64,000 bases of DNA. Source: Prorocentrum cordatum. Taxonomy: Eukaryota. Made by a program: the position numbers and the translations under genes. The notes under the pieces are model-generated. The model did not search any database. It was not told the DNA's origin and saw only the letters and a program-made list of their open reading frames with translations. The stretch spans positions 2,728,001 to 2,792,000 of the forward strand of contig CAUYUJ010000001.1 of NCBI GenBank assembly GCA_963575745.1, read 5' to 3'. Of the stretch, positions 39,733 through 62,938 are shown piece by piece (the first letter of the stretch is position 1; the number at the start of each line of letters is the position of its first letter).

Positions 39733-42103
39733 AATCCCACCAGCCCTTTCGGGCGTCGGTGGTCTAGAGAGCTTCCTCTTCCAACCCCCATTCTTTCCCT
39801 TCGGGGAGGGGTTTACCCCTCCCCTTACCCCTCCCCGCTGACCTGGACGGGGCGTTCCGCGACGCGCTGGAACGTCCAAGATGGCCCAAGACGGCTCCAA
39901 GAACGAAACAACGAAAAATAACAAAACATTGATTTACGTAGGTTTTGGACAGAGTTTGGCCTCTTGGGGGGCCCAAGAGGTGATTCGAGGCATTCTAGAG
40001 GGGCAACGCTAATGAAGAACCCCGCTTCTTTGATAGATCTCCTCCAACATGGCCCCAAGAGCGCCCCGAAGGCTCCCAAGAGCGCCCCGAGAGCGCCCCC
40101 AAGAGGGCCCCAAGAGGCCCCAAGAGGCCCCCAAGAGGCCTTCAAGAAGCTCACAGGAGACCCCCAAGAAACCCCACGAGGCTCCCAAGATGGCCCAAGA
40201 CGGCTCCAATAGCGAAAAAGCGAAACGCACAAACCATTGACTTTCCTTAGGTTTTGGAAGGAGTTTGGCTTCAAGAAGGGCCCAAGAGGCGATTCGAGGC
40301 ACTCTAGAAGGGCAGCGCAAGTATACGACCCCCGCTTCTTTGATAGATCTCCTCCAACATGGCCCCAAGAGCGCCCCGAAGGCTCCCAAGAGCGCCCACA
40401 GAGCGCCACAAGAGGGCCCCAAGAGGCCCCAAGAGGCCCCCAAGAGGCCTCCAAGAGGCTCCCAAGAGACCCCCAAGAGGCCCCAAGAGGCTCCCAGGAT
40501 GGCCCGAGACGGCTCCAAGAGCGAAAAAGCACAAACCATTGACTTTCCTCGGGTTTTGGAAGGATGTTGGCCTGTTGGGGGGCCCAAGAAGCGATTCGAG
40601 GCACTCTAGAGGGGCAACGCTAATGAAGAACCCCGCTTCTTTGATAGATCTCCTCCAACATGGCCCCAAGAGCGCCCCGAAGGCTCCCAAGAGCGCCCCG
40701 AGAGCGCCCCCAAGAGGGCCCCAAGAGGCCCCCAAGAGGCCTTCAAGAAGCTCCCAAGAGACCCCCAAGAAGCCCCAAGAGGCTCCCAAGCCGGCTCCAA
40801 GAGCGAAAAAACGAAAACGCACAAAGCATTGACTTCCCTTAGGTTTTGGAACGATTTTGGCTTCAAGAAGGGCCCAAGAGGCGATTCGAGGCACTCTAGA
40901 GGGGCAACGCTAATGAAGAACCCCTCCTTCTGTGATAGATCTTCTCCAACATGGCCACAAGAGCGCCCCGAAGGCTCCCAAGAGCGCCACAAGAGCGCCT
41001 CCAAGAGGGCCCCAAGAGGCCCCCAAGAGGCCTTCAAGAAGCTCCCAAGAGACCCCCAAGAGGCACCAAGGGGCTCCCAAGATGGCCCAAGACGGCTCCA
41101 ATAGCTAAAAAGCGAAACGCACAAAACATTGACTTTCCTTAGGTTTTGGAAGGAGTTTGGCTTCAAGAAGGGCCCAAGAGGCGATTCGAGGCACTCTAGA
41201 AGGGCAGCGCAAGTATACGACCCCCGCTTCTTTGATAGATCTCCTCCAACATGGCCCCAAGAGCGCCCCGAAGGCTCCCAAGAGCGCCCCAAGAGCGCCA
41301 CAAGAGGGCCCCAAGAGGCCCCAAGAGGCCCCCAAGAGGCCTTCAAGAAGCTCCCAAGACCCCCAAGAGGCCCCAAGAGGCTCCCAAGATGGCCCAAGTC
41401 GGCTCCAATAGCGAAACAACGAAAAGCACAAAACATTGACTTTCCTCAGGTTTTGGAACGATGTTGGCTTCAAGAAGGGCCCAAGAGGCGATTCGAGGCA
41501 CTCTAGAGGGGCAGCGCTAATATACGACCCCCCCTTAGATCTCCTCCAACATGGCCCCAAGAGCAAGAGCGCCCCAAGAGCGCCCCAAGAGGGCCCCAAG
41601 AGGCCCCAAGAGGCCCCCAAGAGGCCTCCAAGAGGCCCCCAAGAGACCCCCAAGAGACCCCAAAGACGGCCCAAGAGGCCCCCAAGCTCGCCATTGTCCT
41701 CCTCCTCCTCCTCCTCCTCCTCCTCCTCCTCTTTTTCTACCTCCTCCCTCCTCCCCCTTTCCCTCCTCCTCCTCCTCCTCCCCCTCCTCCTCCTCCTTCT
41801 CCTTTTCCTCCTTCTCGTCCTCCTCGTCCTCGCAGTGCTCCATCTCCTCCTCCTCCTCCTCATCTTCCTCCTCCTCCTCCTCCTCCTCCTCCCCCTCCTG
41901 CTCCTGCTCCTCCTCCTGCTCCTCCTCTTCCTCCTCCTACTCCGACGACGACGGCTCCTCCTACATCCTCCCCCTCTGGGGGTATATGGCGGCTCACCCC
42001 GCCCTTTGTTCTTCTGCACGCTCCCCCGCTTCCCTCATAACCTCCACTCCCCTGGGACTCATTTCTGGACGGGCTGGTGGGGATATGCGAAGCGTCTAGA
42101 ATT
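39733..42103 (+). mobile_element. Candidate non-autonomous element with short subterminal inverted repeats and a 3' mini-hairpin, filled with a ~300-bp satellite (~6 copies, 39880-41690)
   Basis: CCCACCAGCCC (39736-39746) versus GGGCTGGTGGG (42071-42081), followed by ATGC-GAA-GCGT and CTAG. The satellite marker CATTGA..AGGTTTTGGA recurs at ~39927, 40235, 40537, 40827, 41127 and 41434. Confidence 0.5.
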
Positions 42104-42848
42104 GTTCAATGCGGTGCCCCCAGAGAACGCGACCCTTTCCGTAGGGCCACTTGTCGTCCTCAGCAGGTCTTTGACTACCCTGTGGCCCTTCGAGGGCCCA
42201 CGAGGACCGAATGCAGCGGAACCCATGCGTCTCGCATTCTTGCCACAACTTTGCCTTCATGCCGACAGGAAGCCCTGGACACCCGCCGATCCGATTATTC
42301 CTGCCCGCGGCCCCGGAGGCCCCGACCGCTTCCCATGGGGGGGCAGCCTCTCCCCCCCTTGGGACCCGCCTCTGATCCTCCCGGGGCCCGAGGAGCCGCC
42401 CCCGAGGGCCGAAGGTCAAGGGAACACCGCCGGCCGAAGACAGACACATCGTCGCAGGTCTGGGAGACCGGCCACGCGCAGGAGCGGCCTCTGGGCAGGG
42501 AGTGGCCTCCGGTGCGCGGCTCTCTGGGCGCCGCGGGGGGACCAAACACAAGCGCGCAAGGCGCTCCTGAGGCATCGCGCTCGGCGATCGGGGGGCCCCG
42601 GTGCGCCCGACCCAAAGGCCACTGGGGCAAAGGGCCACTCGTACTTGATCAGGGGCCGACCGTCCTGGCATTCCTATAGTCCTACCACGAAGGGTTCTTA
42701 GAACACAGCAATGTTCTAATAACAAAAACAATGTTCTTAGAACATAAACCCGGTGTGTTCAAACAAGACAGTCCCAGCCAGAAATCTTCTAAGAACATGT
42801 CGTGCAAACCACAAGAGGTTCTTAAACCATTGTTTGGTGGGGCTATAG

Positions 42849-42873
42849 TTATGATATGCGTGGCCTCCTCCAG
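42849..42873 (+). repeat. Left TIR of the large transposon
   Basis: TTATGATATGCGTGGCCTCCTCCAG immediately after the TSD. Confidence 0.88.
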
Positions 42874-43540
42874 CTGGGAAAATGATCACTCCCCACAACA
42901 TCTCCCAGGGAGTCTCAAAACAGTTGTTTCCTACGTTTCCGACGCAGCCCCAAAACAGTTTTAAAGAATATCAAAAACAATGCTCGCTCGTATCAATGCG
43001 ATAATGCGGAAAACACAATAGTTCTAACGTTTTGCTGGGTGTGCCTCGGGTCCGCAGCGCATCGTCCCCCAAGAACCTCAGCGCGCGCTGAGTGCGATGT
43101 GTAGTTTGGCGGGGTTCAGCCCCTTTCCCCACAGGTGCGATGCGAGGTTCCGTATGGTTCAACCTAGGCCCTTTCAGGCCCCCCCCCGTGCCCTTTGGGC
43201 AGGACACGCACCGACTCGACGTCCGCCTTGCTCTGTTTTGAATCGGGGGTTGGGTAATGAGCGAGGGGGGAGACAAAATAAGGTCGGGGACTGGGCGGGG
43301 GTGGGGGGGGGGGGCACATGACACATGACAGAAAGGAAGGGCTGTGATGAGCGGGTGCAGGCGCCCCTTGCCCCCCCCCCCCCCCCCCCTTCCCAAGGGA
43401 TTCAGGACGCCCCCCCCCCCCCCGTCGCCAACGGCAGCAGCATCACCGCCATCATCATCACCACGCGCTGCCGTTTTGGATCGCACATGTCTCGGCAAGG
43501 CTTTGGCACTTTGTGTCTTTTTTTTTGCGGCAAGACCGCG

Positions 43541-46500
43541 ATGGCGGACGGCTGGGGCGATGTGCTCGCCGAGGTCGCGGGTGAGCCTCACCCGCCGCCC
43601 CGCGGCCCCGCGGGCGCCGCGGCCAGAGGGCCGCGCCCCCCGCCCCGCAGGCCCAGTCGGGCAGCCGCGAGGTCGGTCGCGGCGGCGGGCCGCACCAACG
43701 CCCTGTCGCTGCCCCTGTCGGAGTCAGTGAAGCTGCCCACCGTGCCCAGACACATCGTCCAATGCACGGGCAGAGGCTCGACAGATCAGTGGCCGCTGCT
43801 CCCGTACGTTCGCATGGCAGCGCTCGCGATCGAGCGCCAGAGAGTATCAGACCAAGACGTGCCAGCGAAGCTCAACAGCATGTTGATGGATTCGTCGTCC
43901 GAGCTGGCTGGCAGAACCACGTCAAAGGCATCGATCCAGGACTCGATCGGCGTGACCCATGGGAGCTACACAGAGTGCGTGATCGTCTTGGCCAACACCA
44001 TCGTACATTTCGAGCGGGACCAGAAGCTTGCGCTGGAGTGCTATTTGGCAAATACGGTCCCCAAGGAGAACTTGCTCCACTACGTCGAGGCGGTCAAGTA
44101 CGACGAGACCCCGATGAAGCTGTCAGTGAACGATTCGTTCCAAGCACGTGGTCGCGGTGCAGTGGGCTCTTCCGATCAGCAGCAGGTGGCCGTGTACCAC
44201 ATGGATCGATCTCGACAGTGGGGGAAGCCGAAGTTAGAGAGAACTGTCATCAAGCTGCTGCAGAGCTCGTCGAGGTTCGGGTACCTTCTGAGGACCAACG
44301 CGGGCGAGTACGTCGGCATCGTCGGCGCGTCCATTGCTCCGCTCCAGTGGCTGGATCGGAACACTGGGGAGTGTCTTCGAGAGGCGGACCAACGTCGCAC
44401 CACTGCTGTTGGACGGGCTGCTAAGGACTTTGCGTGCAAGACGCGCGTGTCAGTCCTGGACGGCGCTGGCCCGGACGCCCGCTGCGAGGCGCAGGTCGGG
44501 GTTGACCGACGAGGCGACGGCTGGGGCAAGATTGGTTTCACATGCTCCACGCATTGCCTCGCCAACGTATTCACGCACACCTTCGACCTGACGGGCTCCG
44601 ACGTGTCTAGCCAGATCAATTTCGCACTTGCCGTCAACGAGGGCTCGGGCTTCTCTTCTTTCTGTCGGATATTCCGCGCTGTGGTTCAACGGCGGATTCG
44701 CATCCGCAGGGGGAGGCCCCCTCCAGAGGCCACCCCGCGCAAGCGGCACTTGCTGTGCCTTTCGCTCGCAAGGGGGAGTCGACTGATCGAGAAGAAGACA
44801 GCTTTGCACCATTTGCCGAACGGGGACTGGAGGGACCGAGAGCACGTCGACATATGGATTCCCGAGGGCATCGACATAGACGAGAGCGAGATCAAGAAGT
44901 CGGTGTCGGAGGCCTTGGAGGTCGTCCTCTTGGGAGCTCGATTCACCCGGTGGCCGAGGAGCAGGTGGGCGGGGTCCGACGTTGCCATGGACGAGTTCAT
45001 CCTACTTGACGGCATTCACGGATTGGGCTCTGCTGTCTGGGCTATCTGGGCGAAAGAGATGGCTCGGGGCTCCAAGAGGAGACCTCGGCTGGGCGATGGC
45101 GGGGCTCTGCCAGCTGCTGCCGCTGGGCCTGCCGCCGCCGATGGCGGCGAGGGCGGCGCCGCAGAGGCTGCGGCTGCCAGCGGCGGCGATGGGCAGGGCC
45201 ATGGAGATTTCAATGCAAAGCGGCTGGGGAATGAGTACCATCGTAGCACCGCTGAAGATTGGATGGACACGTCGCCGCTTGACAGAGTGGTGATCATTCG
45301 GCAGGTGCTGGAGCCTTTACGTCGGACGATGGATTGGCACCTCGAGGTCGGCGGCAAGCACTGGGAGATCAAGCAGAGGGGCATGGTTGTCCAGGCTGAG
45401 TCCAAGGGCGCAGCCAGTTCGACGAGCAGGACGTGGCCGATCGTGGAGGCTGCGCTTGGCACCCCTGCGCGCGTCTTCCAGGCTGCGTGGGACCCTCTGT
45501 TTCGCGAGCACGTGCTGTGGAAGGACCTCGTGCAGCCGTCGGCGATGACTCGGAAGGCGCGCGCCCTCGCGTTCAAGCTTCTTTCGAGGTCTGAGTGCCA
45601 GGTCCGGGAGGCGTTCACGCATCGACATAGCTTGCTTCCGACTCGCACCTTCGCCATGATCGTGGACCCAGCCGTTGCGCAGGAAGTGAGTGACCTCCAG
45701 GATTGCCGCATGGACAGCTGGACGAAGGACTTCGTGCTGCGACACAAGGACGCGGACGGAGGCTTGTCGAACCCAGCGGCGATCGCAGTGTTGAACCTGC
45801 TTGCCGCCACGATCGACTTGGACATCAAGGCTATCGAGTCCCACCACGCCTCGATCCGCAGGCGGCTGATGGTCAGGGGAGTGCAGACCCACTCGGCAAC
45901 GTTCGCGGAGTCGTCGGCCGAATGGGTGGTTGCCCAAGCTCGTTTATCAGGCAGGGCATTTCGAGCAGTCGGTGAGGGGGGCGCGCCAGCAGGTGGTGGC
46001 GATGACGCAGGGGGCCCTGGCGGGCCGCCAGGCGAGGAGGCTACCGCCACTGTCAGGGGCACGGTGTCTTCTTGGCATGCTCTCCTGAGGGAGCAATCCC
46101 TTGGTCAGACTGGCCGCCAGTGCATCGCCGCCTTGAGCGCTGCGTACCGCGCTTTACCAAGAGCAGAGGTGGCGAGGCTGGCTGCCGTCGCAGCCGCGGC
46201 CAATGGGAATCCCCGTGCTGCGGATGCACCTGGCAGCGCCTTCGGCCTCCGGTCCCGCGACCTCGCTCGCGCCCAGGCCAAGAGGCGGCGGAAGGCGTCT
46301 GAGCAGCAGCTCGTCGCGGAGGCTGTCGTGCCGACCAGCCGCGGGGGGGTGACTGATTTGGCAATGCGGCGGGCATCGGCAGATCCCAACGCCACCGTGA
46401 ACATGGACTCGATGATGCGGGCTGCCCAGTCGCACATGGTGAGCTTGCGCCGCGTGGCCAAGACCGAGGAGCGAAAGATGGCCGACGCGATGGAGGCTTG

Positions 46501-47134
46501 GGAGTCGACTACGGGCGCTGCCCAGTGGGCATCCATGTGCAACAGTTTCAAGGGCGTGGCTGCTTTCCAGGTTATGCTTTCTCCTATGCCCTCGCACATC
46601 GGCCAGATGCTGGAGTTCAAGCGCCCTACTACGTCGACAGCTTCGATCGCTCGCTCGCTGTGGATGTCAGGGCACGGCAGCAACATGAAAGCTTGTCTCG
46701 CATCAGGCTGGATGGAGAGGCACAGGGCCATCATGCGCGACGACTGTGCCCCCGTAGACGTGCCCGTCCAGAAGAAGAAGTACACTTGTGCTCAGATCGG
46801 CATGTGCATCTGTTGCCCTGAGGCCGATGTCATCAAGAAGTTCCGCAGGCGCTTCTACTCCGAGCTGAAGGGCCTCTGCACCAAGGGGTCGCCCGAGCGG
46901 AAGCTCTTGGACGATTCCAGCTTGGTCGTGCGACTGCGCGGCATCAAGGCGGCTGTCGTCGATGGCCGGGGCGTTGTGGCAGCTGGCCCCTCTGGCGACG
47001 ACCCCGACGGCGTGGGCGCCTACGTGTGGTGGCACATCGGCTCCCACGAGTTCAGCCCCTACTGCTCCAACTTCAGGCCGCTCGCCTTCGTCGAGCAGGA
47101 GGCCGTCGGCGGCCAGGTGGAGGTATTGTTGGAG
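43541..47134 (+). CDS. Transposase exon 1 (RNase H-fold DDE core, HMG-box-like segment, Cys cluster); 3' boundary approximate
   Basis: Uninterrupted ORF 43325-47380, likely start MADGW at 43541. Motifs YDETP (D at 44102), LDGAG (D at 44459), CSTH (44543-44554), SRW (44960-44968), IESHHASIRR (E at 45836), SSWHALLREQ..AALSAAYRALPRAE (~46065-46190), CAQIGMCICC. Confidence 0.8.
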
Positions 47135-47472
47135 GAGTCGTTAGCGGAACGGAAACACACTCCTCCCACCACGAACGCGCGCGTGCACGCATGCGCGCTG
47201 GCACGCACGCGCGCGCACGCACGCGTGCGCATATTCGTAGGTGCGCGCACATACGGGCAGATACGCACGCACGCACACGCATACAGGCACGCAGGCACGG
47301 GCACAGGGGACGAGGGAGAAGAGGAGGGTGTGACGAGACAGACCAGGACGACACTGGCGAGGGGAACGCAAGGGGGCTAGTCGGAAAGGGGTCATAGGGA
47401 TCGATGGGGGGAGGATGATTGGGGATGGGGTGAGAGTGATCCCGTCATTGCTATAGTTTCGCCCCCCACGAG

Positions 47473-47827
47473 GGGTGCCACAGAGTCTTTGGTTGATTGG
47501 GAGGCGTTCAGTAGCTTGGACCTCACGGCCGATTGGTCGATCAGCTTTTGGGTCATCGACGAGAGTGATCGTGCCGTCGCCCGTTTTCGCCCTGCCGACG
47601 TCGTCGTGGTCTCCATGGGCCCCGAGTCCGAGCTGCGGCAGTCAGGGAAGGCGACGAGGCGGGCCACAGCTGCGCGGCCCGCCGCCACGGACGACGGCGA
47701 CGACGGCGACCACGGGAGCATCGCGTCGGACCAGGAGGAGGACCTGGATGACCCCCTCCCCCTGGACGACGGGCCCGTGGGCGGCGACGACCACGGCGGC
47801 GCGGACGACGTCCGCGCTGGTGGCGAG
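47473..47827 (+). CDS. Transposase exon 2 (5' boundary uncertain, 47473-47486)
   Basis: Same frame as exon 1 (VDWEAFSSLDLTADWSISFWVIDESDR...acidic tail). Ends at a phase-0 GAG|GA donor. Confidence 0.6.
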
Positions 47828-48340
47828 GACAGCATACTTGAATGTAAGTTCCCGCAAGCATCGCCTAATCCTAAGGTGGGGAGGCCTCTACATTTAACAC
47901 ATTAGCTAGTTAGGTTAACGGTGTGGAAAGTGTAAAACAGCAGCGCTTCAAACAAAAGCACAACAATCAAGCAACACGTAAAACAAAACAACGGCTCTAA
48001 CACATCACAAACAAGCCCCGATAGGTTCCGACACGCCACCGAAACGGCCCTATACGTCCCCAAGAGCGGGAGGTGACGAGGAGGTTGGACGACAGGGGGT
48101 TAGGGAGGGGGCGGTGGAAGGCAGGCAGGATATGAAGCAATCCCTGGTAAGATGAACAGATGCACATTACGGAGGAGGAAGATGATGTGAAGAGGCGGAA
48201 GCAACACGAGGAACATATGTATGTCTCTTGGGGGTCATCTTGGAGCCGTGTCGGGCCGTCTCGGCAGGCCTCCTCTGTGGGTCTGGGGTGGAGTGGGAGG
48301 GCTGGGGTTGCATCGCCCTCCTGCCCCTCGATCCGCACAG

Positions 48341-48904
48341 GACGAGGTCGGCATGGACATCGACGAGTTGTTCAGCGAGGGCGAGGGCGGCGACGGCGGC
48401 GGCGAGGTTCCGCTGCCGCCCGAGGCCCCTATGCCACCGCCTGTTTTTCCGTTGCCTCCGCCCCCGCCTCCTGTCTCTCGGGCCTCCCGCTCAGAGGCGG
48501 GGTCGCGGGCGAGCCGCGAGCCTGTGCAGCATGCTGTCAATGTCCAAGGAAAAGGTACGATTGTGTATTACAGGGAAGGCAGGTGTTTCGAGGCCAGGTG
48601 CCATCGTGGCCATGGCCGCTGCACAATGAGCGCAGCAGCGCACGGCAGCGATCTTGAGAATTTGGCGGCGCAGGGCCGCCCACTTGGCTTGTTAGTATCG
48701 TGGGCGCTGGACCTTGGGGAGGTCTGTGACGACAAGCCGTCGCACGAAAACAAATTCGCACTCCTGACGCTGCGTCCGTACATGAGGCGGCGTGCTCGGG
48801 AGCTCCTTCGTGGCCTGCCAGGTGGTTTGGATCTCATGTCGAAGGAGCGCCCGCAGCGCCCTGGAGAGCCCGAGGGGCCAGAGGGATTGGCGCCCTCCCG
48901 ATGA
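48341..48904 (+). CDS. Transposase exon 3 with a C-terminal Cys/His putative zinc-binding domain
   Basis: Phase-0 acceptor CCGCACAG|GAC. Peptide ..GTIVYYREGRCFEARCHRGHGRCT..GRPLGLLVSWAL..CDDKPSH..RRRAR..ERP..*. Confidence 0.65.
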   Translation, partial: DEVGMDIDELFSEGEGGDGGGEVPLPPEAPMPPPVFPLPPPPPPVSRASRSEAGSRASREPVQHAVNVQGKGTIVYYREGRCFEARCHRGHGRCTMSAAAHGSDLENLAAQGRPLGLLVSWALDLGEVCDDKPSHENKFALLTLRPYMRRRARELLRGLPGGLDLMSKERPQRPGEPEGPEGLAPSR

Positions 48905-49759
48905 GCGATGAACAAAAAAACGATTAATGGGTGTGGGGGGGGGGGATGGAGGAGCAGGATGCCGGGGAACGGTGATGAGGGGGAAGAGCAGGGACAACCG
49001 AAATGAGGAGGGGGTGAGGCCCTCGCTTCCCTTATAGGTTGCCGTGCAAGAAGGGCGGCTGGGGCGCCGATGGGCGAGGGGGACAGGGGTCGACGTTGAG
49101 GCGGGGGCTCTCGTTTTAGCGCCGCGCACGCTCATCTTAAACATCCGCAGCAGACGCGGATGGAAGGCGGGCGGTTTTCAAGTTGCGGCTCTCGCCTGAG
49201 CTCGTCTACAACTTGCATCAGCTACACTGATGGAGGGCGGGCGGTGTTAAAATTACGCTCTCGCCTTAACCTTGGCGCCGCGCAAACTCATTGTCAAAGC
49301 TTGCAGCACTTGCACTTCCCCCATCGCTGAACGGATCTGTCCGAGGTTTGGCGTGGCGACGTGCCCCGTGCCTGACAGCCTGGGCTTGGCAAGGGGGTGG
49401 GCAACGGTTCGAGGTGATTGGTCACCCCCATCTCCCCGTCTGACGCCCTCTCTTGGCTTTCGCCGCCGCCCCTCTCCTCAGCTTCGTCATGTCTGGCCCG
49501 CGAGCTCATGCATCTCAGACTCCGTCCTGCGGTAAGTGCAGTCATCATTGCCGTGCTGGCGCATCTTGGAGCGCCCTTTGGGGCGATGAGGGCCCCCTGT
49601 GCACTGTGGCGGCGGCTGCGGCGACGGCGGCGACGACGGCGAGTATGGCAAGGGTGACAGCGGCGACGACGGCGACGACGACGGCCCTTCGGCCAGTCGG
49701 TGTGGCTGGGGCGCCATGGGGTGCTCCTGGAGGTCCCCCCAGGGGGGCCTTCTGTACCC

Positions 49760-50400
49760 TCAGACTTTTTCGAGACTCCCCTGGGGGACTTCTTTGGCAC
49801 CGAGACTCTTCTTGAGACTCCTCCTGGGACCCCGCTAGACTGCGTGACTCTTTGTTGGTGCCCTCTCGGGGGCAGCTGTTCGAAGGATTCGGATGGAGAC
49901 TGTTTCGAGACTCTGTCTGAGACTTTTTCCTGCGTTTTTTTTTTGCGCGTCCTGGGGGCCCGGCACGGGGGGGGGGGGAGCGGCGACCGCAAGGGGGCTG
50001 TTTTTATATGTTTTTGAAACTGTGTTGGGACTTGTTGGTGCCGTTTTTGGCCAGGAGACTGTTTTGAGACTGTTTTGAAACTATTTTGAAACTGTTTGGG
50101 GGTTTGGGGAGCCGTTCAAAAAGTACAGAAAAAAGTACCAAAAAACGTCCCGAACAAGTCTCGAAACAGTCCCCCGCGCCGAACCCTCCCAAAAAGTATC
50201 CAACAAGTGCCAAAAAAGTATCAAAATAGTGTTTTGGCAGAGTCCCAGCAGCGATTTGGGCACCCGCCGCCCGATTCCCAAGAGTCTCAAAACAGTCTCA
50301 AACCAGTCTCAAAAAAAGTAGCTAAACAGCGCACTGCGAAAAACCAATGAAACCACAGCCCCCCGAAAAGTCTCGAACAAGTCTCAGGGGGGGGGACTCT
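49760..50400. repeat. Internal array of the subterminal motif ACTGTTT(T/C)GA(G/A)ACT, switching orientation at ~50120
   Basis: Forward copies at 49895-49930 and 50055-50097; reverse copies at 50156, 50283-50315 and 50369. 50058-50071 is the exact reverse complement of 42911-42924. Confidence 0.85.
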
Positions 50401-51331
50401 TCAGACCTTCAGCTGCCCAAAATGTGCCAGGGGGGAGACTCTGAGGACCCCCGCGCGCCCAAAGAGTGCCCAAAGAGTGTCCCGAGAGGGCGCCGAGCGG
50501 GGTCGCGAAGAGGGCCAGTTCCCGCGACGTTGGACCCTCGTGGGGAGCCCTTGGGGCCCTCTTGGGCCCCATTGGAGCCGCATCGTGCCCATGTTGGGCC
50601 CCTCTTAGGCCCCTGGGAGGGCTCTGAGAGGGTTCAGAAAGGGCACCCAGAGGCCCCAGAGGGTGCTCCAGACGCGGGGGGCCAAACAATAACATATGTG
50701 TTTGGGTTTCTGGCATCAACGCCACCCTGGGCTCCTCGTGGGGCCCTCTCGGAACCCCAAGAAGCTTGCCGAGAGGACCCAGGATTGGGCAATGCCGAAA
50801 CACACATGTTTCGGATGGGTTTAAGTTGCGCCCTAGGGGGGTCGCAAAGAAGGCGCCGAGAAGGCCCTGGACCGACCTCCTGGGCACCGCTACATCCGTT
50901 TCATGTTTACATTATAACCATTAGAGCAAGGGGTCCTGCAGACAAGCATCTGGCTGCTCGAAATCGGGGCCCTTCTCGGGGCAAGTTCGGAGTCGGCCTG
51001 GGCGTTAAGTTTGAAAATGGGGCCCGCGCTATAAATCTATCCTGGGCGCAACCAACGGCCCCACATAGGTTTCGTCGTTGACCTTTTGGGGCCCATGGCT
51101 TCGGCCGTTGCGAGTTGAACGGGGCCTGGGCCTTAGGGGGCCCTGGGCCGCCATGGGGCCCAGCTGTTGAAGGCCCTGGGCCGCCCTGGGGCCCGAGGGG
51201 CCCCCGCTCGACCGTCGGCGTCGCGTCGCCCTCTTGGCTCAAATTTCGCAGAGCCTTTGAGCGCGCGTGCTCCGGCCGCCAGTGCCCGACCAGCGCCGCG
51301 GCCGCCCGACGCCCAGCCGCTCGCATCGGAG

Positions 51332-51424
51332 ATGGCCAAGCGCAGCTCCAACGGTGAGATGCCCGCTGCTGGTCGCCAACGCCGCCTCGGTGCGAAGTCC
51401 ACGACGCGTGGTCTCTGCGGCGAG
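51332..51424 (+). CDS. Transposon ORF2 exon 1 (MAKRSSNGEMPAAGRQRRLGAKSTTRGLCGE)
   Basis: ATG at 51332. The GAG|GC donor joins in frame to the GAG|GCG acceptor at 51832/51833. Confidence 0.5.
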
Positions 51425-51832
51425 GCGCCGAGGGTCCAGCTGAAAACCGCACCAATAGCAACAACAACACAACAACAGCAACACCACTAGTAATAGCAAT
51501 AGCAGCAACAACAACAACAGTCGAAACAATAGCAACAACAACATCAACAACAATCACAACAACACAGCAACAACCCCCCGTCCCTGCTTTCTGCTCCCTG
51601 CTCCTTCCCCTCCTCCCTCCGTCCTTCATTCCCCCCATCCTCTGATGCTCCCGACCCTCCTCCCCTCCCCCTGCCCCCTACCCCCTCGTCCACTTGCGCC
51701 CCCCCCCGCCCCCCCCGTCGCTCGCAGAGTGGCGGGGGGGGGAGGCGGAGCGCGCGCGGGGCGCGGAGGGGGGGGGGGTCGAGGATCCGAGAAGCAAGTT
51801 TTTGCTTAACAGCAATTGTTTGCCGCCGCGAG

Positions 51833-54773
51833 GCGTGCGACGACCTGGTCAAGCGCGCCCGCGAGGACGAGGCCGTCTTCGCGCGCCGCAGTTGCGACGA
51901 CGTCTACATCCACAGCCTGAGCCTCATGACGATCACCGACGTCGTCGCGAGCATAAGCGACGATGTATTCAAGAAGGATTTCATCGAGGGGAAGATGCAG
52001 ATAAAGAAGCAGGGTAAGAGGCCGCTCTTCCCCGAGGAGGTGGGCAAGCGCGAGGTCTTCTCCATGAAAGTGAAGCGGAAGGCCCTCATCATGTCGAGGT
52101 CAGAGCTGCACAGATATTGCGGCTTCAAGCCCACCAAGAAGAACACGAAATCGATCCCCTCGATGATGTTGCACTCGGAGGACAGCCTAGACGTCGAGGG
52201 CGTATGGCTCTTCATGTGGACGATCGATTGGTCCTTCCTGCGCGCGCTGAGCATCAGCATGGGCGTCGTTAGCGAGAAGAGCTGTGCGTACATGAAGCAG
52301 GAGAACCACATCTTCGCCTCCCAGAGCACGCGGACGTTCGACTGGAGCATGGGCGAGCAGACTCACTCGAGTGGCCCGTCAACCTTGCTCGCGAACCTCA
52401 AGACCCACGAGGGCGCCGGCCTGGCCCTCACGGAGGAGATGGCCAACTCGATGGGGACGCGGCGTCTCCGCGGCGGGGGGTTGCCGTCAGGCGGGGTGTC
52501 CTCCACGTCGCCGCCGATGACCATGTCAGGAGCGTGCTCGGTCCTCTCTGGCGGCATCGAGTCCACGCCAACGGGGGGGGCGGGAGATGGCGAGACTGAC
52601 TCTCCGCACGCGCCCATGCTCTACAGCAAGGGCACCTTGTCGGCGACGACGATCAACGTCATGGCGGAGCGACGTGCTGCGAGGAGCGCTGTGAGCGGGG
52701 TGCCATCCGCCCTGTCGGCCATCGGCCGACTCCAGGCAGCGGCGGCGAACACCTGCAGCATCGATGCTGACGATTCGGCGAGCCAGGCCCCCAATGCAGG
52801 GGGCCCAGCTGTGGGCAAGGGGGACCAGTGGATTGCGAAGCTCCCGTTGTCGAAGGTGCTCACAGCTGGGAAGTTGGGCGCCCAAGCGCACCACGCCACT
52901 GGAGAGTCGAAAAAGGCTGAAGGACAAGGATAAGGACCAGTGGAACAGACTCACCCTGCACATGACGAGGTACGAGCTCGCGAACAAGCTTCACGAGACC
53001 AACATCTTCAGCGCCTCGGCTGGCGATGTCAAGGACGCCTTCGAGCGCCTGCGCCAGTCCATCGATGCCCCGCCCGTCGTCCAGAAGAACATGTGCAAGA
53101 AGATGTTCCAGGAACGCATGACAGTCGAGCTCCAGTCCATGACCGACGTCGCCTTCTTCTTTGAGATGGTGTGGCCATGGCCCACATCATCTCAGGAAGC
53201 GGGCCTCACCTTCACTGCGGATTCGCCGAAGCTCCACTTCATTGACCTCGAGATGGCCGAGAAGATCCGCATGTTCAACCAGAGTTTCATCAGCGGCGTG
53301 CACACTGCACTGATCGAGGGAGGCCACGAGAAGAAGGATATGCTCGTGGCGATTTCTTCTCGGATGGCTTCGCTGATGGACGATCTGCTGGCCGACGCAG
53401 AGGAGTTCTGCGAGGGCGCGTCGCACTTCTTGGGCGCGCTGGGCTCCATGGTGGGCGGCGTCGCCGAGATCTGCGACCCGACCAGCCCGTGGAAGGCGGG
53501 CGACATCGACGCCTTCTACAGCGACATCCTCTCCCTCGACCCCAACCGCGGGGACATCTTCAGCGGGCTGGAGGGGGTGGCGATCGCCATCGGCGCGTGC
53601 GCCGAGTACAGCAAGACGTGGGCGACCCTGATGAAGGACAAAGTCATGGCCATGGAGCTCGCCCCCCAGGTTTCAGCATCCACGTCCGCCCTCTTGTCGG
53701 TGGCGCGCAGCCCCCTGGGCTTCGACGGGGCGGTTGCTGCGGCCACCGCGGCGTTGAGCACCACCCCGAAAGTCGCGTGCTCCCTGGGCGACGAGCTCGC
53801 GACCCCCGTCGTCAAGGAGGTGAAGGCCGCGCTGAAAGATTTGTCGGCCAGCGTCGCCTCAGCCACGCCGACGGGGTCATTGGCGCAGACGCAGCAGAGC
53901 ACATTCATCCAGCTGTTGGGCAAGGCGGTCGACGCCATGCCGTCGGACGCCGAGCTTCTGAAGATGAAGACGGAGATGGACGAAGCCGACGCCTCCATGC
54001 CCCGCGATGCCATCAGGGCGCAGTTGACCACGCTGGTCAACGACATATTTGCTGACGCGGCGACCGCGGTCAACCTTCGCGACGACTTGCGCCTTATCAT
54101 GGGCAAGATGGCAAAGGACGACTTGGATTCGACGATGACTGCGAAGCTCGGCGAGTGCGCCTGCGCCCTCATCAAGAAGATCTTGACGGTGCCCGAGGGG
54201 GGCAAGGAGATGGCGGACGCCGCGACGCAGGCAGCGCACCACTTGCACGACTTCCTGCCGAGCACGGCCACGAAGGGACAGCAGCGGAGCTTGGAGGCAT
54301 CGAGCGCATGTCGGTCGCTGAGGCCGACCACGGAGGCGATCGTCCAGAAGTTCTTCGACGATGAGAAGAAGCTCATCGCGGAGCAGGTGGATCTCGGGGA
54401 CCCGCAGCTTGCCCTCCTGCGCGTCCTCCTGGAGAAGCTGGACGCCTACATCAAGGACGAGGCCGACTCGGACATCAGCTTGCACGAGCACATGAAGGCG
54501 CAGATCCACCAGTACGTGGAGGACGCGAGGCGCGTGGTGAAGACGGTGGGGCAGCACGCCGTCGACGTGGCATCGGCCGAGACCCAGACGACAGCGGCGA
54601 ATATCGAGCCCTACATGCACGGCCTCCCCGACGGCACGGACTGGTTGAGCGCTGGCCCAGCCAACCTCCACGTGTGGAAAAACTTGGCGGTCCACGCCGA
54701 CAGTGCGATCTTGTCCACGGAGATGAGCAAGACCATCGGCCCCTTGAAGAAGAATGTGGACGCTGCCGAGAAG
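51833..54773 (+). CDS. Transposon ORF2 exon 2 (unknown, largely helical-looking protein), one apparent +1 frameshift at the A5 run 52910-52914
   Basis: ORFs 51926-52933 and 52764-54854 have strong GC3 bias and fuse as ..TGESKRLKDKDKDQW.. if one A is removed. Confidence 0.75.
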
Positions 54774-54971
54774 GCGGCTGTGTGCCCCCCCCAGTTATGT
54801 TGGTGCAAACGTGCGCGGGCTCACGCCCGACGTATCTTTGCGTTTGTTTCTTAAGTTGTTCAGTGGGTCGCAGATGGGTTTCGAGGAGGAAGGTGAAAGA
54901 AGGAAAGCCGCGCACCAGTTAGCCTAAGATACCGCTGCATGGCCTTCCCTCCTTCACCTCCCTCTTGGAAG

Positions 54972-55253
54972 GCGCTGGCCCACTGGAAGTCCGAGGGTGA
55001 GAAATACGGATTGCGCATCGAGGGGGATCAGAACTACCAGAAGGTGTCAGACATCATCACCAACGCGTGGGTGACTCTTGTGACAGGCAGTCTGTTCATG
55101 GCTTTCAAGAAAGCGACTGACAAGCAGTTGCTGAGGGCTACGATCGTAAAGACGACGAGCGCCCTCAAGGAGCGTGGCATTTCGCAGGACCGTTTGCATC
55201 CAACCCTGTCGGCGCGGGTGCAGCTGGCCATGCAATTCAAAATTAATGATTAA
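54972..55253 (+). CDS. Transposon ORF2 exon 3
   Basis: The GC-AG intron 54774-54971 (AAG|GCG at both ends, phase 0) gives ..AAEK|ALAHWKSEG...MQFKIND*. Confidence 0.7.
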   Translation, partial: ALAHWKSEGEKYGLRIEGDQNYQKVSDIITNAWVTLVTGSLFMAFKKATDKQLLRATIVKTTSALKERGISQDRLHPTLSARVQLAMQFKIND

Positions 55254-56992
55254 TGTGTAGTTAGGTTTCCTGGGGCCGAGTGGTGTGGTGAAACGAGCTG
55301 CCATTTTGGCGTTCGGCACGCAGCGAGCGCACGCAGACGCCGCGCGTGCATGTCAGCACGGGTGCTGGGTGCGCGTGTAGAAAACACTGCAGCACCCTCT
55401 CCCGCAGCGTGCAAGCACGCAGCACGACAGAGAGGTACACACACACCACACACACACGCACGCACAAACCCAGCCCAGGTCCCAGCCCGCAGACAGCATG
55501 CGGGCTGACAGTTACGAGTTGCGAGTCGGTCCGCATCGGGGCCTGACTGGACTCAGTCAGGACGCGGTATCTCCAGCTCTCTAGGCCAGAGGAGAAAAAC
55601 ACGTGTGGCGGGGGTGCGTATTTCTCTTCCCCACTCTTCCGCCCACCCCACCCCCCCGATCCCCCACCGGCCTAACCCCTGCCCCCCGCCCCCCGCCCCC
55701 GCGGATCTCGAGCCGTCGCCACCTACCCCCCCCTCCGCGCCCGACAGAGTCAGAGGGGCCCGACGGGCCGACGGGGTGCCCCCGCGGCTGCGTCCGACGC
55801 CCCTGGCATCGCCAGAGGGCGAAGTCAGCCGCGTCGAGGCGGCGGGGAAGGGGAGGGCGGAGGAGGAGGAGGAGAAGGAGGCGGAGGAGTGGAACAGAGA
55901 CGGAAGGGAGGAGAAGGAAGGATGGTGGAATGAGAAAATGGAACAAGGCGTGATGACGGCGGGGCCTCTCCTTTTCCCTTCTCCCGCCTCCCTTCGTCCG
56001 CCCCGCCCCCCTCTCCCTTTTCCCTCCTCACCCCTTCCCTCACCCCTCTCCCCTTCGCCCCCATGTCCCTCCCCTTCCCCATCCCCCTCCCTCTTCCTCC
56101 TCCCCCTTCTGCTCCTCCCCCTCCTCATCCTCTCCCCCTCCTCACCTTTCTCTTCCCCCAGCTTTGCTTTCCTTGGGGCCCGTGCGCTCCGTTGTCTTGT
56201 TCATTATTGGCAGCGTTGCGTTTCTTCCCCTCCGAGGCCTCACGATATTTCTCCTTATGCTCCTTCCTCGAGGCCTTTCTGGCTTTCCTGTCCGCCTCCT
56301 TGTCATTGTTACAATGTACAATGGCAAGGAGGTGATGTTTTTGTTCGTTGAGTTCTTTGCATCGGTCTGAGAGCCATTAGTTCTTGTTCTCCATCTCGTC
56401 TGTTTTCATCGTGAGTTGGCACGCGACCTTAGCCCCCCCGCCTCCTCCCCCCCCTCCCTCCCCCCTCCTCTCCCCCCCCTTCTCCCCCCCTCTTGCCTCC
56501 TGCTTCCCGCCCCGCCCGCGGCCACCCGAGGGGGCAGGCCGCCACGGGCGGCCCGAGGGCGCCGCCGCGCCAGCGGGGGGGGGCACCCGAGCGGCCGTCG
56601 CCGCCGTCGTCGCCGCCGCCGTCGCCGCCGCCGAACCCCCCCTCTTACTCCCCACCCCCTCTCATTCCGAGTGGGCCGACGCTTTTTCCCGCCAGGAGCC
56701 CGCGGTGCGAAGGTGCCTAAGGCGAGAGCGCGATTCCGAAAACCAGCGCGTGTCCGAGTGGGCCCTCGGGCCGCAGGCAACCGCTGCCGCTGGCGCCTTC
56801 GGTGGAGCTCTCTATGAAGGCGCGGAACGTGTGAGCGCGCCGAAGTGGACCCTCGGACCGAATGCGACCGCTGGCAATGGGGCCTCCGATGGAACTCCCT
56901 ATGGGGCTCCGCCGCTATGCCCTCGCACCCCCCCTCCCCAGACCACCCCGCTGCCCCCGCCCCTCCCTCCTCATCCATCCCCCTCCACTCCG

Positions 56993-57014
56993 TCCGTGGC
57001 CATTTTGGCTCAAG
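56993..57014 (+). other. Near-complete dinoflagellate spliced-leader sequence inside the transposon's right end
   Basis: TCCGTGGCCATTTTGGCTCAAG matches DCCGTAGCCATTTTGGCTCAAG at 21/22. Confidence 0.9.
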
Positions 57015-57363
57015 GCCGCCTGGCTCCAAAGCGGCCTGCGCGTGGCCCGAGCGCGAGCTCGCGTCCGTGGGTGCCCCCCTTGCGCAGGTTCTTGCGCCTC
57101 GCGTTGGCTTCCTGATGTGCCGCGCGTTGGTTCGGCAGCGCGCGGCACGGGTGCTCTGCCCCCAGCCCCCCGCCCACTCGGCGGGGCGGGTTTGCGAAAT
57201 TGCGCGCGGCGTGGCAGCGCCGAGTGTCGCCTGAGTGGCCTGCACTTTTTTTTTTTGCGCGACAGTGTCGCCGCGACACTGTTTTGAGGCTCCTGAGCGC
57301 CGCGGCCTGCAGACTGTTTTGACACTCTTGACTACACTTGCCAGCAAAACCTCCATATCCCTC

Positions 57364-57388
57364 CTGGAGGAGGCCGCTGCCATCATAA
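57364..57388 (-). repeat. Right TIR of the large transposon
   Basis: CTGGAGGAGGCCGCTGCCATCATAA immediately before the TSD. Confidence 0.88.
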
Positions 57389-58849
57389 GGCTATAGGCAC
57401 GCCAGGACGCTTCGCCACTGCTTGACTTACGTGTAGTCGAAGAAAGGAGCGCCCCCGCCCGCCCGGACCCCAGGCCCATCCTTCAGGCGAGGGCCTGGTG
57501 GCGCGCAACGCGCGCGCGCGCGATCGGCGGCGGACCTGCCGGCGCTGCTCGCCCGCGTGGAAGTGCCTGGCGGCGGGGCGCCTCCGCCGTTTGCATCCCT
57601 GCCCCCTGAGGGCAACGCCAGGAGAAGAAGTCACCACCAGTGGGGTCGTCACTTGCTCGAGGAAGCGCCAGCTCCTCCGAGAAGTGCCCCCCCCCGGCCC
57701 CCCAGAACACTCCAGAGCCCTCCAGCGCAGCCCCTGACGTTCAAAAACCTCCTCGAGCGTCGATCCTGGGACTTCGATCCTCCAAAGGGCCTGCTGACCA
57801 CCCTCGTGTGGCGACTCCCCCTTGGCACTGCCCGGCCCCCCAGGAAGCGCCGCGGCGCGCGGACTCCGCGGCGGGAGGGAGCGGCGCACCGGGCGACTTT
57901 CTCGGACATGCCCTCCTCGGCCTTGCCCGGGAGGGGAGGGGAGGAATAAGGCTCCTCCTCCTGCTCCACCTTTGCCCCCGCCGCTCCCGCACCGTCCCCA
58001 CTGGCTCCCCTTTCCCCTCCTTGCTCTTGTCACTGTCCTCCTGCTCCTCCTGCTCCTGGTCATGCTCCTCCTCCTTCTTTTTGATATTGAGCGGACATGC
58101 GTTCTACAGCTGTTGCGTTCCGTCCTCCTTCTCCTCCTCCTCCTCCTCCTCCTCCTCCTCCTCCTCCTTCTCTCCCTTCTCTCCCCCGCCTCCTCCGCTG
58201 TTCCTGATCATCCCTTCCCCTCCTCGGCATCCTGCACTTTGTCATCGTGCTCCGTTGTAGAGGGGGAGGAGATGTCGGGGGGAGAGGAGATGGAAAGGAG
58301 GAACTAGTACGACTCGAAACAGAATCGGGAGGAAATGGAAGGAGGGTGTGGTGAAGAAGGGGAGCGGAAGGGGAGGATATGAATGGTACATGGAAGAAGG
58401 GGGGGCGCATATCGAAGGTGGGAAGAGGGTCGGGGAGGTGGACATGAAGAGGGGACCCCTTGGAAAAAAAGAGGGGGAGGAGGAGGAGGAGTCAGGAGCA
58501 GGAACCTCGGGATCCGCCTGCGCTCAGACTGTGGGGGTGCGAGATGGATCGCTCGCGCCACCTCGGAGGAGGAAGAGCAGGAGAAGCAAGGCGACTGCGC
58601 AAAAGCATGCAATCATGCTAACGGTCCTCTGCTCTGGTCATTGCCAGCATTGGGCAGTGGAAAAGGACTGCGACAAGTTCGGTCAATGCCACGCCAAAAC
58701 CACCAGCAGGTCGACAAGAAGAACGCAGTCCGTCGCTTCGGGGGACAATCCTCGAAGTGGCGGGCGAGCTGCTCGTTCAGCTGCCGCACGCGCGCCGCGG
58801 AGGCGGCGCCCTCGCGCGCGGCCTCGGGGTCGGCCAATGGAACGGACCG

Positions 58850-61612: not shown

Positions 61613-62938
61613 TCAGGGTGCAGCACCGCCCGCTGGCCTCTCCCAGCTCACGGCGCGCGTCCGCGAATGGTAGTAATACGACCGCCCGCTGGCGGGGTCT
61701 GCCGCCTCGAGCCACAGGCCTCCCGCGTCGCCTGGCCGTTGCGCCGACCCCGCCGCGGCCGTCGGCGTGCCACCCGCCAGCCACCGCTCCACGGCCTGGG
61801 TAACGCGCGTCTGCTGGGTGCCGCTGCGCCGGGCGGCCTCCAGCAGGCGCCTCGCCGCCGCCGCGGCCGGCGGCGTGGGCGCCAGCGACCCGTCGAGGAC
61901 CTGCTGCAGGCTGCCCCCGAGGACGGCCGCCAGGTGCTCCTCCAGGAAGAACTTGTCCGGCGCCACGCCCTGCTGGGACATCCGCGCGGCCAGCCGCGAG
62001 ACACGGCTGTGCCCCGCCTCGGGGTCAGCGCCTGCCAGGCCGGAGGCGCGGTAGATGCCCATCACGATCGTGTAGTGGACCACGTCGGGCTTCACGGGCC
62101 CGTCCGCCATGTCGTGCAGGAGCTTCTCGGCGCGATCGGCATCGCCCGCGCAGCGGCATGCCTTGAGCATGCACCCCAGGTGACTCCGAGAGGGCTGTAG
62201 CTCATAGCTGGCCATTGCGTCGAGGTGCCTCTGAACCTCGGCCAGGTCTCCAACACTCGCCGCGGCACTCATTATTGCTGTGAAAGCTGCTCCAGTGGGC
62301 CGGAGTCCTCTAGCTATCATATCTTCCCAGATATCATTGGCCTGCTGGTGACGAGATAATTTTCCACACAATTGAATGGCAGTCGTATATGGGGGAACAT
62401 TGTTTGCAATGCCCAGTTTTCGCATTTCATTAAACAGCTCAAGGCCTTCCACGCAGCGGGAGCATCCTCCATACAAGGCCATCGCCGAAACGTACACAGG
62501 CTCAGTCAAAGCCAAACTGGTCGTCCTTAAACTCTCGAACAGCTCAACTCCCTGCGAGTAACGGCCACAACGGACTGCTCCTGCTAGCATCGCGCTGTAC
62601 ACGATTGTGTTTTTCTGTTCGATGCTATCGAATACCTTCCATGCCTCTGCATAATTCCCTTGCTTCGTGAGCTGCTCAATCGCTTTAGTGAAGCGCCTGT
62701 TCGATGGCGTATCATGCTCCATATTCAAGGTGTCAGCTGTGCGCGCGCTCCGTGGCAGTTTGCTGCTCGGCAGCGTCAATCCCAATGCAGCCCGGTTGCG
62801 CTGACAAGCAAAACTGCTCAGACATCTGCAGGCAATGCTGACAACATGCAGTGCTTCACGTCTCGGCGTGAGAGCGTTTGTGCACAAACCAACCCTCGTA
62901 ACGAATGCGCGTAATTCGGGTCCAAACCTCACGGTCAT
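61613..62938 (-). CDS. Pentatricopeptide-repeat (PPR) protein with a C-terminal WW domain, intronless (alternative start at 62722)
   Basis: About 7 tandem ~35-aa PPR motifs (e.g. VPPYTTAIQLCGKLSRHQQANDIWEDMIARGLRPT; RSHLGCMLKACRCAGDADRAEKLLHDMADGPVKPD) and WLEAADPASGRSYYYHSRTRAVSWERP (WW signature). Confidence 0.88.
   Translation of the reverse strand: MTVRFGPELRAFVTRVGLCTNALTPRREALHVVSIACRCLSSFACQRNRAALGLTLPSSKLPRSARTADTLNMEHDTPSNRRFTKAIEQLTKQGNYAEAWKVFDSIEQKNTIVYSAMLAGAVRCGRYSQGVELFESLRTTSLALTEPVYVSAMALYGGCSRCVEGLELFNEMRKLGIANNVPPYTTAIQLCGKLSRHQQANDIWEDMIARGLRPTGAAFTAIMSAAASVGDLAEVQRHLDAMASYELQPSRSHLGCMLKACRCAGDADRAEKLLHDMADGPVKPDVVHYTIVMGIYRASGLAGADPEAGHSRVSRLAARMSQQGVAPDKFFLEEHLAAVLGGSLQQVLDGSLAPTPPAAAAARRLLEAARRSGTQQTRVTQAVERWLAGGTPTAAAGSAQRPGDAGGLWLEAADPASGRSYYYHSRTRAVSWERPAGGAAP

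Follow-up and report, generated by a model that had tools for sequence, protein, structure and literature searches.

The locus

The DNA considered here is a 64,000-nucleotide stretch of the Prorocentrum cordatum genome (contig CAUYUJ010000001.1, positions 2,728,001 to 2,792,000 of the forward strand), called the window below and used as the reference for all coordinates; it is GC-rich, eukaryotic DNA, and proteins that match its translation at 89-100% identity bear this species name at NCBI. Within the window lies a 14,540-bp element (42849-57388) that holds a transposase gene and a second gene in the same orientation. It is likely that the locus represents the three-exon gene for a transposase of about 1,487 amino acids (aa), carried by a structurally complete cut-and-paste transposon, and that the protein belongs to a very large, unnamed family of C(2)H-type DDE transposases, apparently centred on dinoflagellates, which, by its hallmarks, is closest to hAT.

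Element ends, target duplication and subterminal repeats

The element is bounded by 31-bp terminal inverted repeats (TIRs). The left TIR (42849..42879, + strand), which begins TTATGAT, matches the reverse complement of the right TIR (57358..57388, - strand) in alignment A6, with identities of 7/7 at the tips, 20/25, and 24/31 overall (77%). The combined tip and core pattern occurs twice in the window, exactly at the two ends of the element, against an expectation of 0.02. Immediately outside the TIRs are two identical copies of the 8-bp sequence GGCTATAG, one at 42841..42848 and the other at 57389..57396, which form the target site duplication (TSD). Inverted pairs were collected throughout the window (at least 24/31 matching positions, exact 7-nt tips, 2-25 kb apart), and among the 28,929 pairs found, almost all of low complexity, this pair alone has identical 8-nt flanks. 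The element thus has both the TIRs and the TSD of a cut-and-paste transposon. Inverted pairs of (TCC)n/(GGA)n and of poly-G/C near the gene were rejected as termini for their low complexity.

Two subterminal repeats with a YCAAAACAGT core lie just inside the left TIR (42898..42960, + strand) and two more just inside the right TIR (57278..57331, - strand); the members of each pair are 35 nt apart, and the right pair is the mirror of the left. The window holds seven exact copies of YCAAAACAGT (0.19 expected), all of them inside the element: two at the left end, two at the right end, and three internally at 50058-50296. The internal copies fall within a cluster of subterminal repeats in both orientations (49765..50310) situated between the two genes. 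This region also contains an inverted pair (50055-50310) with 49-nt arms of 78% identity, composed of the YCAAAACAGT/GAGTCTC repeats typical of the ends; it could be a transposase-binding site or the scar of two ends.

Along the left flank, contigs from sequencing run X1 keep to the window up to and including the TSD and diverge from it right after 42848, where their next 14 nt match the right flank (57397-57410) at 12/14 positions by eye. This junction looks like an unoccupied allelic or paralogous site. Within the window, neither insertion flank occurs a second time. The two flanks (42827-42848 and 57389-57410) are partly complementary to one another about the TATA centre of the duplicated 8-mer, and the insertion target may be an imperfect palindrome.

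The transposase gene

The stop-to-stop frame at 43322..47380 (+ strand) is 1,352 codons long, the longest among the 83 window frames of at least 220 aa (the runner-up has 719), and from the ATG at 43541 it runs for 1,279 codons without a stop. Five motifs follow one another along this frame: YDETP, with D188 at 44102; LDGAG, with D307 at 44459; CSTH, with C335 at 44543 and H338 at 44552 (the CxxH spans 44543-44554); SRW, with W476 at 44966; and IESHHASIRR, with E766 at 45836. The spacing between D188 and D307 is 119, and C335 and E766 are 431 residues apart. Downstream are a cysteine cluster, CAQIGMCIC (46787-46813), and WWHIG (47027), whereas a C-terminal Cys/His domain with GRPLGLLVSW is encoded in a separate frame, 48191-48904.

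A family profile hidden Markov model (HMM), built from 130 members and run on the six-frame translation of the window, matched three collinear pieces and nothing else: 43322-47377 (E 7e-289, HMM positions 25-1146), 47381-47902 (E 2.9e-5, HMM positions 1154-1210), and 48191-48901 (E 5.7e-23, HMM positions 1216-1320). Pairwise searches are consistent with this layout; exon 2 has a BLASTP match to P0006 (E 9e-6) at the collinear position, and exon 3 was found by tblastn with P0007 and P0009. These matches support a gene of three exons with putative splicing, and the homology model gives 1,192 + 108 + 187 = 1,487 aa without a stop. The intron junctions were taken from the public gene model at this locus (P0168, described below) together with homology, the model's junctions reading ..AVGGQ|AFSSLDL.. 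and ..AGGE|DEVGMD..; the X1 contigs also span the introns and are hence uninformative on splicing or expression.

All parts of the gene lie on the + strand. Exon 1 (43541..47116, 1,192 codons) encodes the N-terminal region, the predicted DDE core, a helical region, the CxxxGxCxC cluster and WWHIG, and its donor after ..AVGGQ at 47116 is the one used in P0168. Intron 1 (47117..47503, 387 nt) has the form GT..AG followed by G and holds a CACG-type microsatellite, with a tandem repeat at 47170-47231. Exon 2 (47504..47827, 108 codons) contains a conserved block (AFSSLDLTADWSISFW...) and the start of an acidic linker. Intron 2 (47828..48340, 513 nt) has the form GA..AG followed by G, its junction being ambiguous by 3 nt; GA donors have been accepted in the annotation of the P. 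cordatum genome (PMC10666404). Exon 3 (48341..48904, 187 codons and a stop) encodes an acidic and proline-containing linker and the C-terminal Cys/His domain (48548-48790), with C (48599), H (48611), C (48620), GRPLGLL and H (48743); the domain has invariant columns in alignment A4. The same C-terminal domain closes P0160, a P. cordatum protein of 1,495 aa from a second subfamily (37% identity, E 1e-11).

An earlier, sequence-only reading of the window had anticipated much of this structure: the five motifs in their order and places, an insertion of about 430 aa between CxxH and E, roughly 1,200 codons without a stop, a CxxxxxCxC cluster, an acidic linker, a C-terminal GRPLGLLxxW domain, and a three-exon protein of about 1,500 aa. 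All of these were recovered here. Its labels "HMG-box-like" and "CxxxHxxC..CxxxxxH" are interpretations rather than observations and do not share in that agreement.

The protein family and its invariant residues

A HMMER scan of 1.84 billion representative proteins returned 2,589 family members at E<=1e-3, of which 1,377 fall at E<=1e-10 and 510 at E<=1e-30. The named members come from P. cordatum alone, with Polarella glacialis as an alternative name in nr; the remainder are on contigs of 4-12 kb (one of 34.6 kb) from ENA, Logan and JGI. The 90% cluster of P0009 has 32 members and includes several 1,644-aa frames from separate assemblies or contigs. A single metagenome locus was recovered for the family, L001 (365-3385), a partial copy split into frames at 365-862, 866-1660 and 2219-3412, whose splitting would reflect either decay or the presence of introns. 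Among 26 candidate viral contigs there were no relatives of the family (0/26).

In the family alignment (130 sequences at 25-38% identity), six columns are identical in 130/130 members: D188, E189, D307, C335, H338 and W476. Several others are nearly so, including E766 (128/128), C722 (129/129), R774 (127/128), W660 (128/129), N312 (128/130) and G357 (122/130). Together they spell out D-(119)-D-(28)-C(2)H-(~140)-W-(~290)-E with H and RR after it, a signature that, as far as primary structure can tell, characterizes eukaryotic transposases of the C/D(2)H group. The earlier proposal of a CxxH-type DDE transposase is borne out by this conservation of the catalytic residues across the family and gains strength from the ends of the element, on which that proposal had not drawn.

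In transposases of the C/D(2)H group, the core follows the order b1-b2-b3-a1-b4-a2-b5-insertion-a4, b5 is directly followed by the [C/D](2)H motif, and b5 and a4 are set apart by an insertion domain (PMC8230255). The CxxH motif lies within Hermes's active site and is needed for hairpin formation in both Kat1 and Hermes, and a tryptophan of the insertion domain also contributes to hairpinning in these two enzymes (PMC4763223). In the present family, a crude secondary-structure propensity profile places strands at 178-183, 238-251, 257-270, 299-304 and 332-335, the first, fourth and fifth of them just before D188, D307 and C335, and helices at 278-284 (ahead of D307 and behind the block of strands), at 313-320 and around E766, with 380-760 mostly helical. 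The profile weakly suggests the order of an RNase H fold. Three conserved acidic residues stand in DDE order, with strands and helices placed around them by the crude profile, and we infer an RNase H-like fold in which D188, D307 and E766 form the catalytic triad.

Accessory regions

Several conserved regions outside the core are candidates for DNA binding. Ahead of the first strand and D188, the family consensus has an RRGRP motif, which resembles an AT-hook, together with a helix-rich block; the RRGRP motif has been lost from the window copy. Single weak Pfam matches to helix-turn-helix (HTH) or AT_hook models occur in 5/51 members. There is no Pfam match to zf-BED, and alignment A1 has no conserved Cys/His columns before D188. 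The sequence-only reading was right that an N-terminal BED finger is absent, the conserved Cys/His pattern of such a finger being missing from this region. It went too far in placing the DNA-binding modules C-terminal rather than N-terminal to the core, given the N-terminal RRGRP and helical block of the consensus.

The region that had been labelled HMG-like (46064-46255) is a conserved GGxWRAF...Y..L......FG block. The HMG_box model has no match at E<=10 in the sub-range 46031-46294 of the window, in sets of 6, 35 and 51 full-length members, or among PDB profiles, and the crude propensity profile gives this region an extended stretch containing the W and one long helix. The identification as an HMG box finds no support in these searches.

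Further along the protein, a CxxxGxCxC..WWHxG block is found in 80/167 stored family proteins and a motif like GRPLGLL in 33/167. The C-terminal domain has invariant columns at G, Y, F, A, C, C, GRP, W, L and H. Neither zinc-finger models nor any other Pfam models match the regions after the core (51 members and six sub-ranges searched), and the ESM Atlas offered no usable match for the C-terminal domain. The role of these accessory regions in binding DNA is putative.

The second gene and the public gene model

The second gene (51665..55250, + strand) encodes a protein of about 1,050-1,100 aa that belongs to no named family and has no match in Pfam or PDB. Its cluster comprises seven members of 87-92% identity in P. 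cordatum, and relative to one of its paralogs, P0171, the window copy shifts frame near 52911-52915.

In the public model P0168 the second gene is fused to the transposase. This model, of 2,413 aa, is 100% identical over the query and spans 43541-55250; it leaves exon 3 after ..PLPPE near 48424, passes to 51296 and from there to 51665-55250, and so omits the conserved C-terminal domain. P0168 carries the UniRef name "Calmodulin", and no Pfam domains are found in it. A similar fused model exists at a paralogous locus on a 1.09-Mb contig (P0175, 2,383 aa). We think that the fusion in P0168 is an annotation artefact or a read-through form, because the downstream protein forms part of the architecture in 0/167 stored family proteins, because five paralogs of the second gene are annotated as standalone genes, and because P0160 ends in the domain of the frame that stops at 48904. 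Given the absence of the second gene from all 167 of these proteins, this lineage alone may carry it, as a passenger.

Relationship to known transposase families

Searches against named families were almost uniformly negative. Pfam gave no match in the three transposase frames of the window, one irrelevant weak match in six family members at E<=5, two sub-threshold T6SS_Vgr matches and nothing else in 35 representatives, and nothing relevant in six sub-ranges of the window; 51 members searched at E<=10 matched no transposase family, the weak matches mentioned above being to HTH_11, HTH_50, HTH_8, HTH_psq and AT_hook. NCBIfam produced 0/4 matches. Sequence and profile searches of PDB returned no transposase, Hermes included, and the profile rows for TFEB, uL23 and p53 were set aside as being at chance level. 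Scans of members and sub-ranges gave no Pfam match to KDZ, CxC, THAP, Tnp_P_element, MULE or SWIM, and for KDZ and CxC this includes the sub-range with CxxxGxCxC, 46700-47116. Scanning the window for Rfam families and tRNAs produced no matches. No description of this transposase family was found in the top-ranked papers of a literature search, taken without their supplementary files.

The likeness to hAT elements (Hermes, Ac, hobo, Tol2, Buster and the domesticated Kat1) lies in the architecture of both the element and the protein. An 8-bp TSD, which is usual for hAT elements (PMC12730594; PMC10368747), is common to both, as are short imperfect TIRs with subterminal repeats near both tips. Also shared is the arrangement D..D..C(2)H, a helical insertion with an invariant Trp, E, and basic residues after the E, an equivalence of position that we infer rather than read from an alignment. 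The nearest named clusters to the family in the ESM Atlas are FAM200-ZBED5 RNase-like, DUF659, DUF4371 and Dimer_Tnp_hAT, at scores of 0.81-0.85, and 9 of the 10 neighbour matches listed are of hAT type.

The differences are nonetheless considerable. Hermes is 612 aa long; its TIRs are imperfect and 17 bp in length, its BED finger binds subterminal repeats, and its target preference is nTnnnnAn (PMC10368747). The present protein, in contrast, has about 1,490 aa and lacks a BED finger, and its element measures 14.5 kb and includes a second large gene, compared with about 3 kb for that of Hermes. Here the two Asp residues are spaced by 119 and 431 residues separate C(2)H from E, the TIRs measure 31 bp and have TTATG tips, and the protein has additional C-terminal modules (the CxxxGxCxC..WWHIG block and the C/H/C/H domain with GRPLGLL); the family has no sequence match to hAT in Pfam or PDB.

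A number of points weigh against the reading of the locus as a complete element closest to hAT. The tips of the TIRs, TTATG, seem not to fit the hAT tip consensus. No link by sequence to any named transposase family emerged from the Pfam, NCBIfam and PDB scans, and homology to hAT models in particular (hATC, hAT-type RNase H) was undetectable in Pfam and PDB. The ESM neighbours are a lead only, their scores lying below the level that would count as more. The propensity profile is weak evidence, obtained by averaging Chou-Fasman values over the alignment. With A at position 7 and G at position 2, GGCTATAG agrees with the Hermes preference at one of two preferred positions, in a single insertion. 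The ends of the element were defined from one copy only, and the empty-site reading is based on 14 nt from four contig ends.

The strongest competitor is a cut-and-paste transposase unrelated to hAT, belonging either to an independent, undescribed C/D(2)H superfamily or to a remote offshoot of P, MULE, Kolobok or KDZ/Zisupton that happens to produce 8-bp duplications. This is a possibility of some substance, though the less probable one. In its favour, the hAT Pfam models (Dimer_Tnp_hAT and hAT-like RNase H families) match 0/51 members at E<=10, and it suits a protein about 2.4 times the length of Hermes with no BED finger and with C-terminal modules of its own, in a 14.5-kb element with a second gene and 31-bp TIRs; the spacing E..H..IR after the catalytic Glu is as much like MULE or P as like hAT. 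However, the ESM neighbours listed are predominantly of hAT type, the hAT pattern is precisely one of subterminal repeats and short TIRs combined with an 8-bp TSD, the family has C(2)H where P has D(2)H, and the Pfam scans gave no match to KDZ, CxC, THAP, MULE or SWIM.

The P element and THAP9 superfamily shares the 8-bp TSD with the present system. The TIRs of the Drosophila P element are likewise 31 bp long, and its first catalytic Asp is likewise followed by Glu. Its DDE core, too, is interrupted by an insertion domain that falls between b5 and a4, but the motif in P is D(2)H and the insertion, of about 190 aa, binds GTP (PMC8230255), whereas the residue here is an invariant C (130/130) and neither THAP nor Tnp_P_element matches in Pfam.

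The enzymes of Zisupton and KDZ elements are large transposases with Cys clusters. The 8-bp TSD and the presence of passenger genes are shared with the element described here, which has no Pfam match to the KDZ transposase or CxC. Zisupton also makes 8-bp TSDs, a point in favour of an origin outside hAT, and KDZ has been described from fungi and animals (PMC12730594). MULE and SWIM are similarly without a match in the Pfam scans.

The combination of a transposase and a second large, co-oriented protein in one TIR-bounded unit with subterminal repeats is shared with En/Spm-CACTA (TnpA, TnpD) and with PIF/Harbinger. CACTA elements have 2-3-bp TSDs and CACTA tips, unlike the element here, and the second gene of the window differs from those of known two-gene transposons in matching nothing and in being missing from the 167 stored family proteins.

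Overall, the invariant catalytic signature within an element bounded by TIRs and a TSD identifies the protein as a transposase. The 8-bp TSD, TIRs, subterminal repeats and C(2)H/Trp arrangement are shared with hAT while the hAT models and BED fail to match, and the protein is therefore called hAT-like with respect to its probable mechanism. The family may be either a very deep branch of hAT or a superfamily of its own.

Genomic copies, decay and activity

The transposase is present in five close copies on different contigs (the window copy, P0175, P0170, P0004 and P0005), the others having 95.5-96.5% aa identity to the window copy, and a second subfamily in the same genome (P0028, P0160) is about 31% identical. 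The order of the two genes is preserved at at least three P. cordatum loci: the window, P0175, and P0170/P0174, which have consecutive accessions on one 80,770-bp contig. Other copies bear damage, with W476R in P0004 and residues 385-431 missing from both P0005 and P0170.

The sequence-only reading had raised the possibility that the window copy is still active, which is doubtful. An intact, autonomous transposase would be in keeping with 1,487 codons over three exons without a stop or frameshift, with the retention of the catalytic D, D, E, CxxH and W and of the C-terminal Cys/His ligands, and with the survival of both ends and a perfect 8-bp TSD. Two substitutions nevertheless set the window copy apart, alone among the five close copies: N312D (44474..44476, + strand; N in 128/130 family rows), five residues beyond the second catalytic Asp, D307, and G357S (44609-44611, + strand; G in 122/130). 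The consensus RRGRP motif is missing, the TIRs agree at just 24 of 31 positions, and the partner gene shifts frame near 52.91 kb. Among 40 listed substitutions between X1 and the window, seven outside the exons were dropped, and the remaining 33 comprise 11 synonymous and 22 non-synonymous changes, where 0.25 synonymous would be expected at random; the X1 contigs also have six 1-nt indels in exon 1. This split and these indels point to divergence that is close to neutral, which one would expect between copies of a transposon but not for a host gene. Full activity is accordingly improbable for this copy despite its intact triad. The window copy is most likely ageing, and non-autonomous or crippled in spite of its surviving open frame, and it is probably no longer active.

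The same data bear on whether the protein is a domesticated or ordinary host gene among incidental repeats, which is very unlikely. The public annotation includes the gene in an ordinary gene model (P0168), many members of the large family keep long open frames (the P0009 cluster with its 32 members and several 1,644-aa frames), and many dispersed gene duplicates are reported for dinoflagellate genomes (PMC10666404). The gene, however, sits exactly within a TIR/TSD unit with mirrored subterminal repeats, its paralogs have changes at invariant residues as well as deletions, the ratio of 11 synonymous to 22 non-synonymous changes reveals no purifying selection between copies, and a single genome contains two very different subfamilies. 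That the D/D/CxxH/W/E pattern is a coincidence in some structural or regulatory family without nuclease function is scarcely credible: no database model or solved structure matches by sequence, but seven invariant residues of catalytic type keep a fixed order in 130 sequences at only 25-38% identity, the propensity profile fits the RNase H order, and the gene is inside a transposon.

Proposed mechanism

The following scheme for the hAT-like transposase combines the features of the element with the fold, the chemistry and the pairing of domains with sites that the comparisons suggest. Sequence-specific parts of the protein would attach to the pairs of subterminal repeats (YCAAAACAGT) and to the 31-bp ends, the candidates being the N-terminal AT-hook-like and helical region that is conserved in the family and the C-terminal Cys clusters. 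The RNase H-like core would then nick the DNA by means of D188, D307 and E766 with metal ions. The CxxH motif and W476, the latter in the mostly helical insertion of about 430 residues, may aid the hairpin or second-strand step, as CxxH and Trp do in Hermes and Kat1. Staggered integration over 8 bp would finally give rise to the duplication of GGCTATAG.

Significance

DNA-transposon activity has been invoked for the introner elements of dinoflagellates, and, to our knowledge, autonomous dinoflagellate transposases have hardly been described. Dinoflagellate genomes are huge and repeat-rich, with about half of their genes classed as "dark" in the account of the P. cordatum genome (PMC10666404). 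The 2,589 representative clusters without a Pfam model amount to a sizeable blind spot in annotation, and members of the family slip through filters for transposable elements, as the window member did when it was fused to its neighbour and named "Calmodulin". A defined element, with its ends, TSD, candidate binding sites and catalytic signature, would give annotators a model for masking. Transposon biology would gain a very divergent hAT-like enzyme with new accessory domains, and the element is a possible starting point for a dinoflagellate transposon tool.

A broader and more tentative idea, which we regard as conceivable rather than probable, is that the family constitutes a superfamily not described before, or branches from within hAT more deeply than any known lineage, and that its large, two-gene cut-and-paste transposons with 8-bp TSDs pervade dinoflagellate genomes and marine data among the "dark" genes. 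Its transposases would then possibly be the missing autonomous partners that mobilize some of the non-autonomous elements of the TIR type, introner-like elements included, by which these genomes are shaped.

Neighbouring features

Simple repeats are prominent around and within the element. Upstream of it, at 40051-41686 and 41697-41943, are arrays of an 11-nt unit (CCCCAAGAGGC and variants) and then about 81 copies of TCC; a GGA-rich mirror of the TCC array lies inside the element at 55835-55917. The long tracts of poly-G and poly-C at 43297-43316 and 43369-43393 occur in extreme abundance in run X1.

A search of the window found no spliced-leader relic adjoining the transposase gene. The core of the dinoflagellate spliced leader is matched exactly over 16 nt at 12549-12564 (- strand) and at 56999-57014 (+ strand), the latter in the stretch of the element that separates the second gene from the right end, and an 11-nt piece of this second match is also found at 55300-55310. 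Beyond the element, a frame at 61613-62977 (- strand) encodes PPR repeats (PPR_2, E 1.9e-21) and a WW domain, and is the sole frame among 12 long neighbours to match Pfam.

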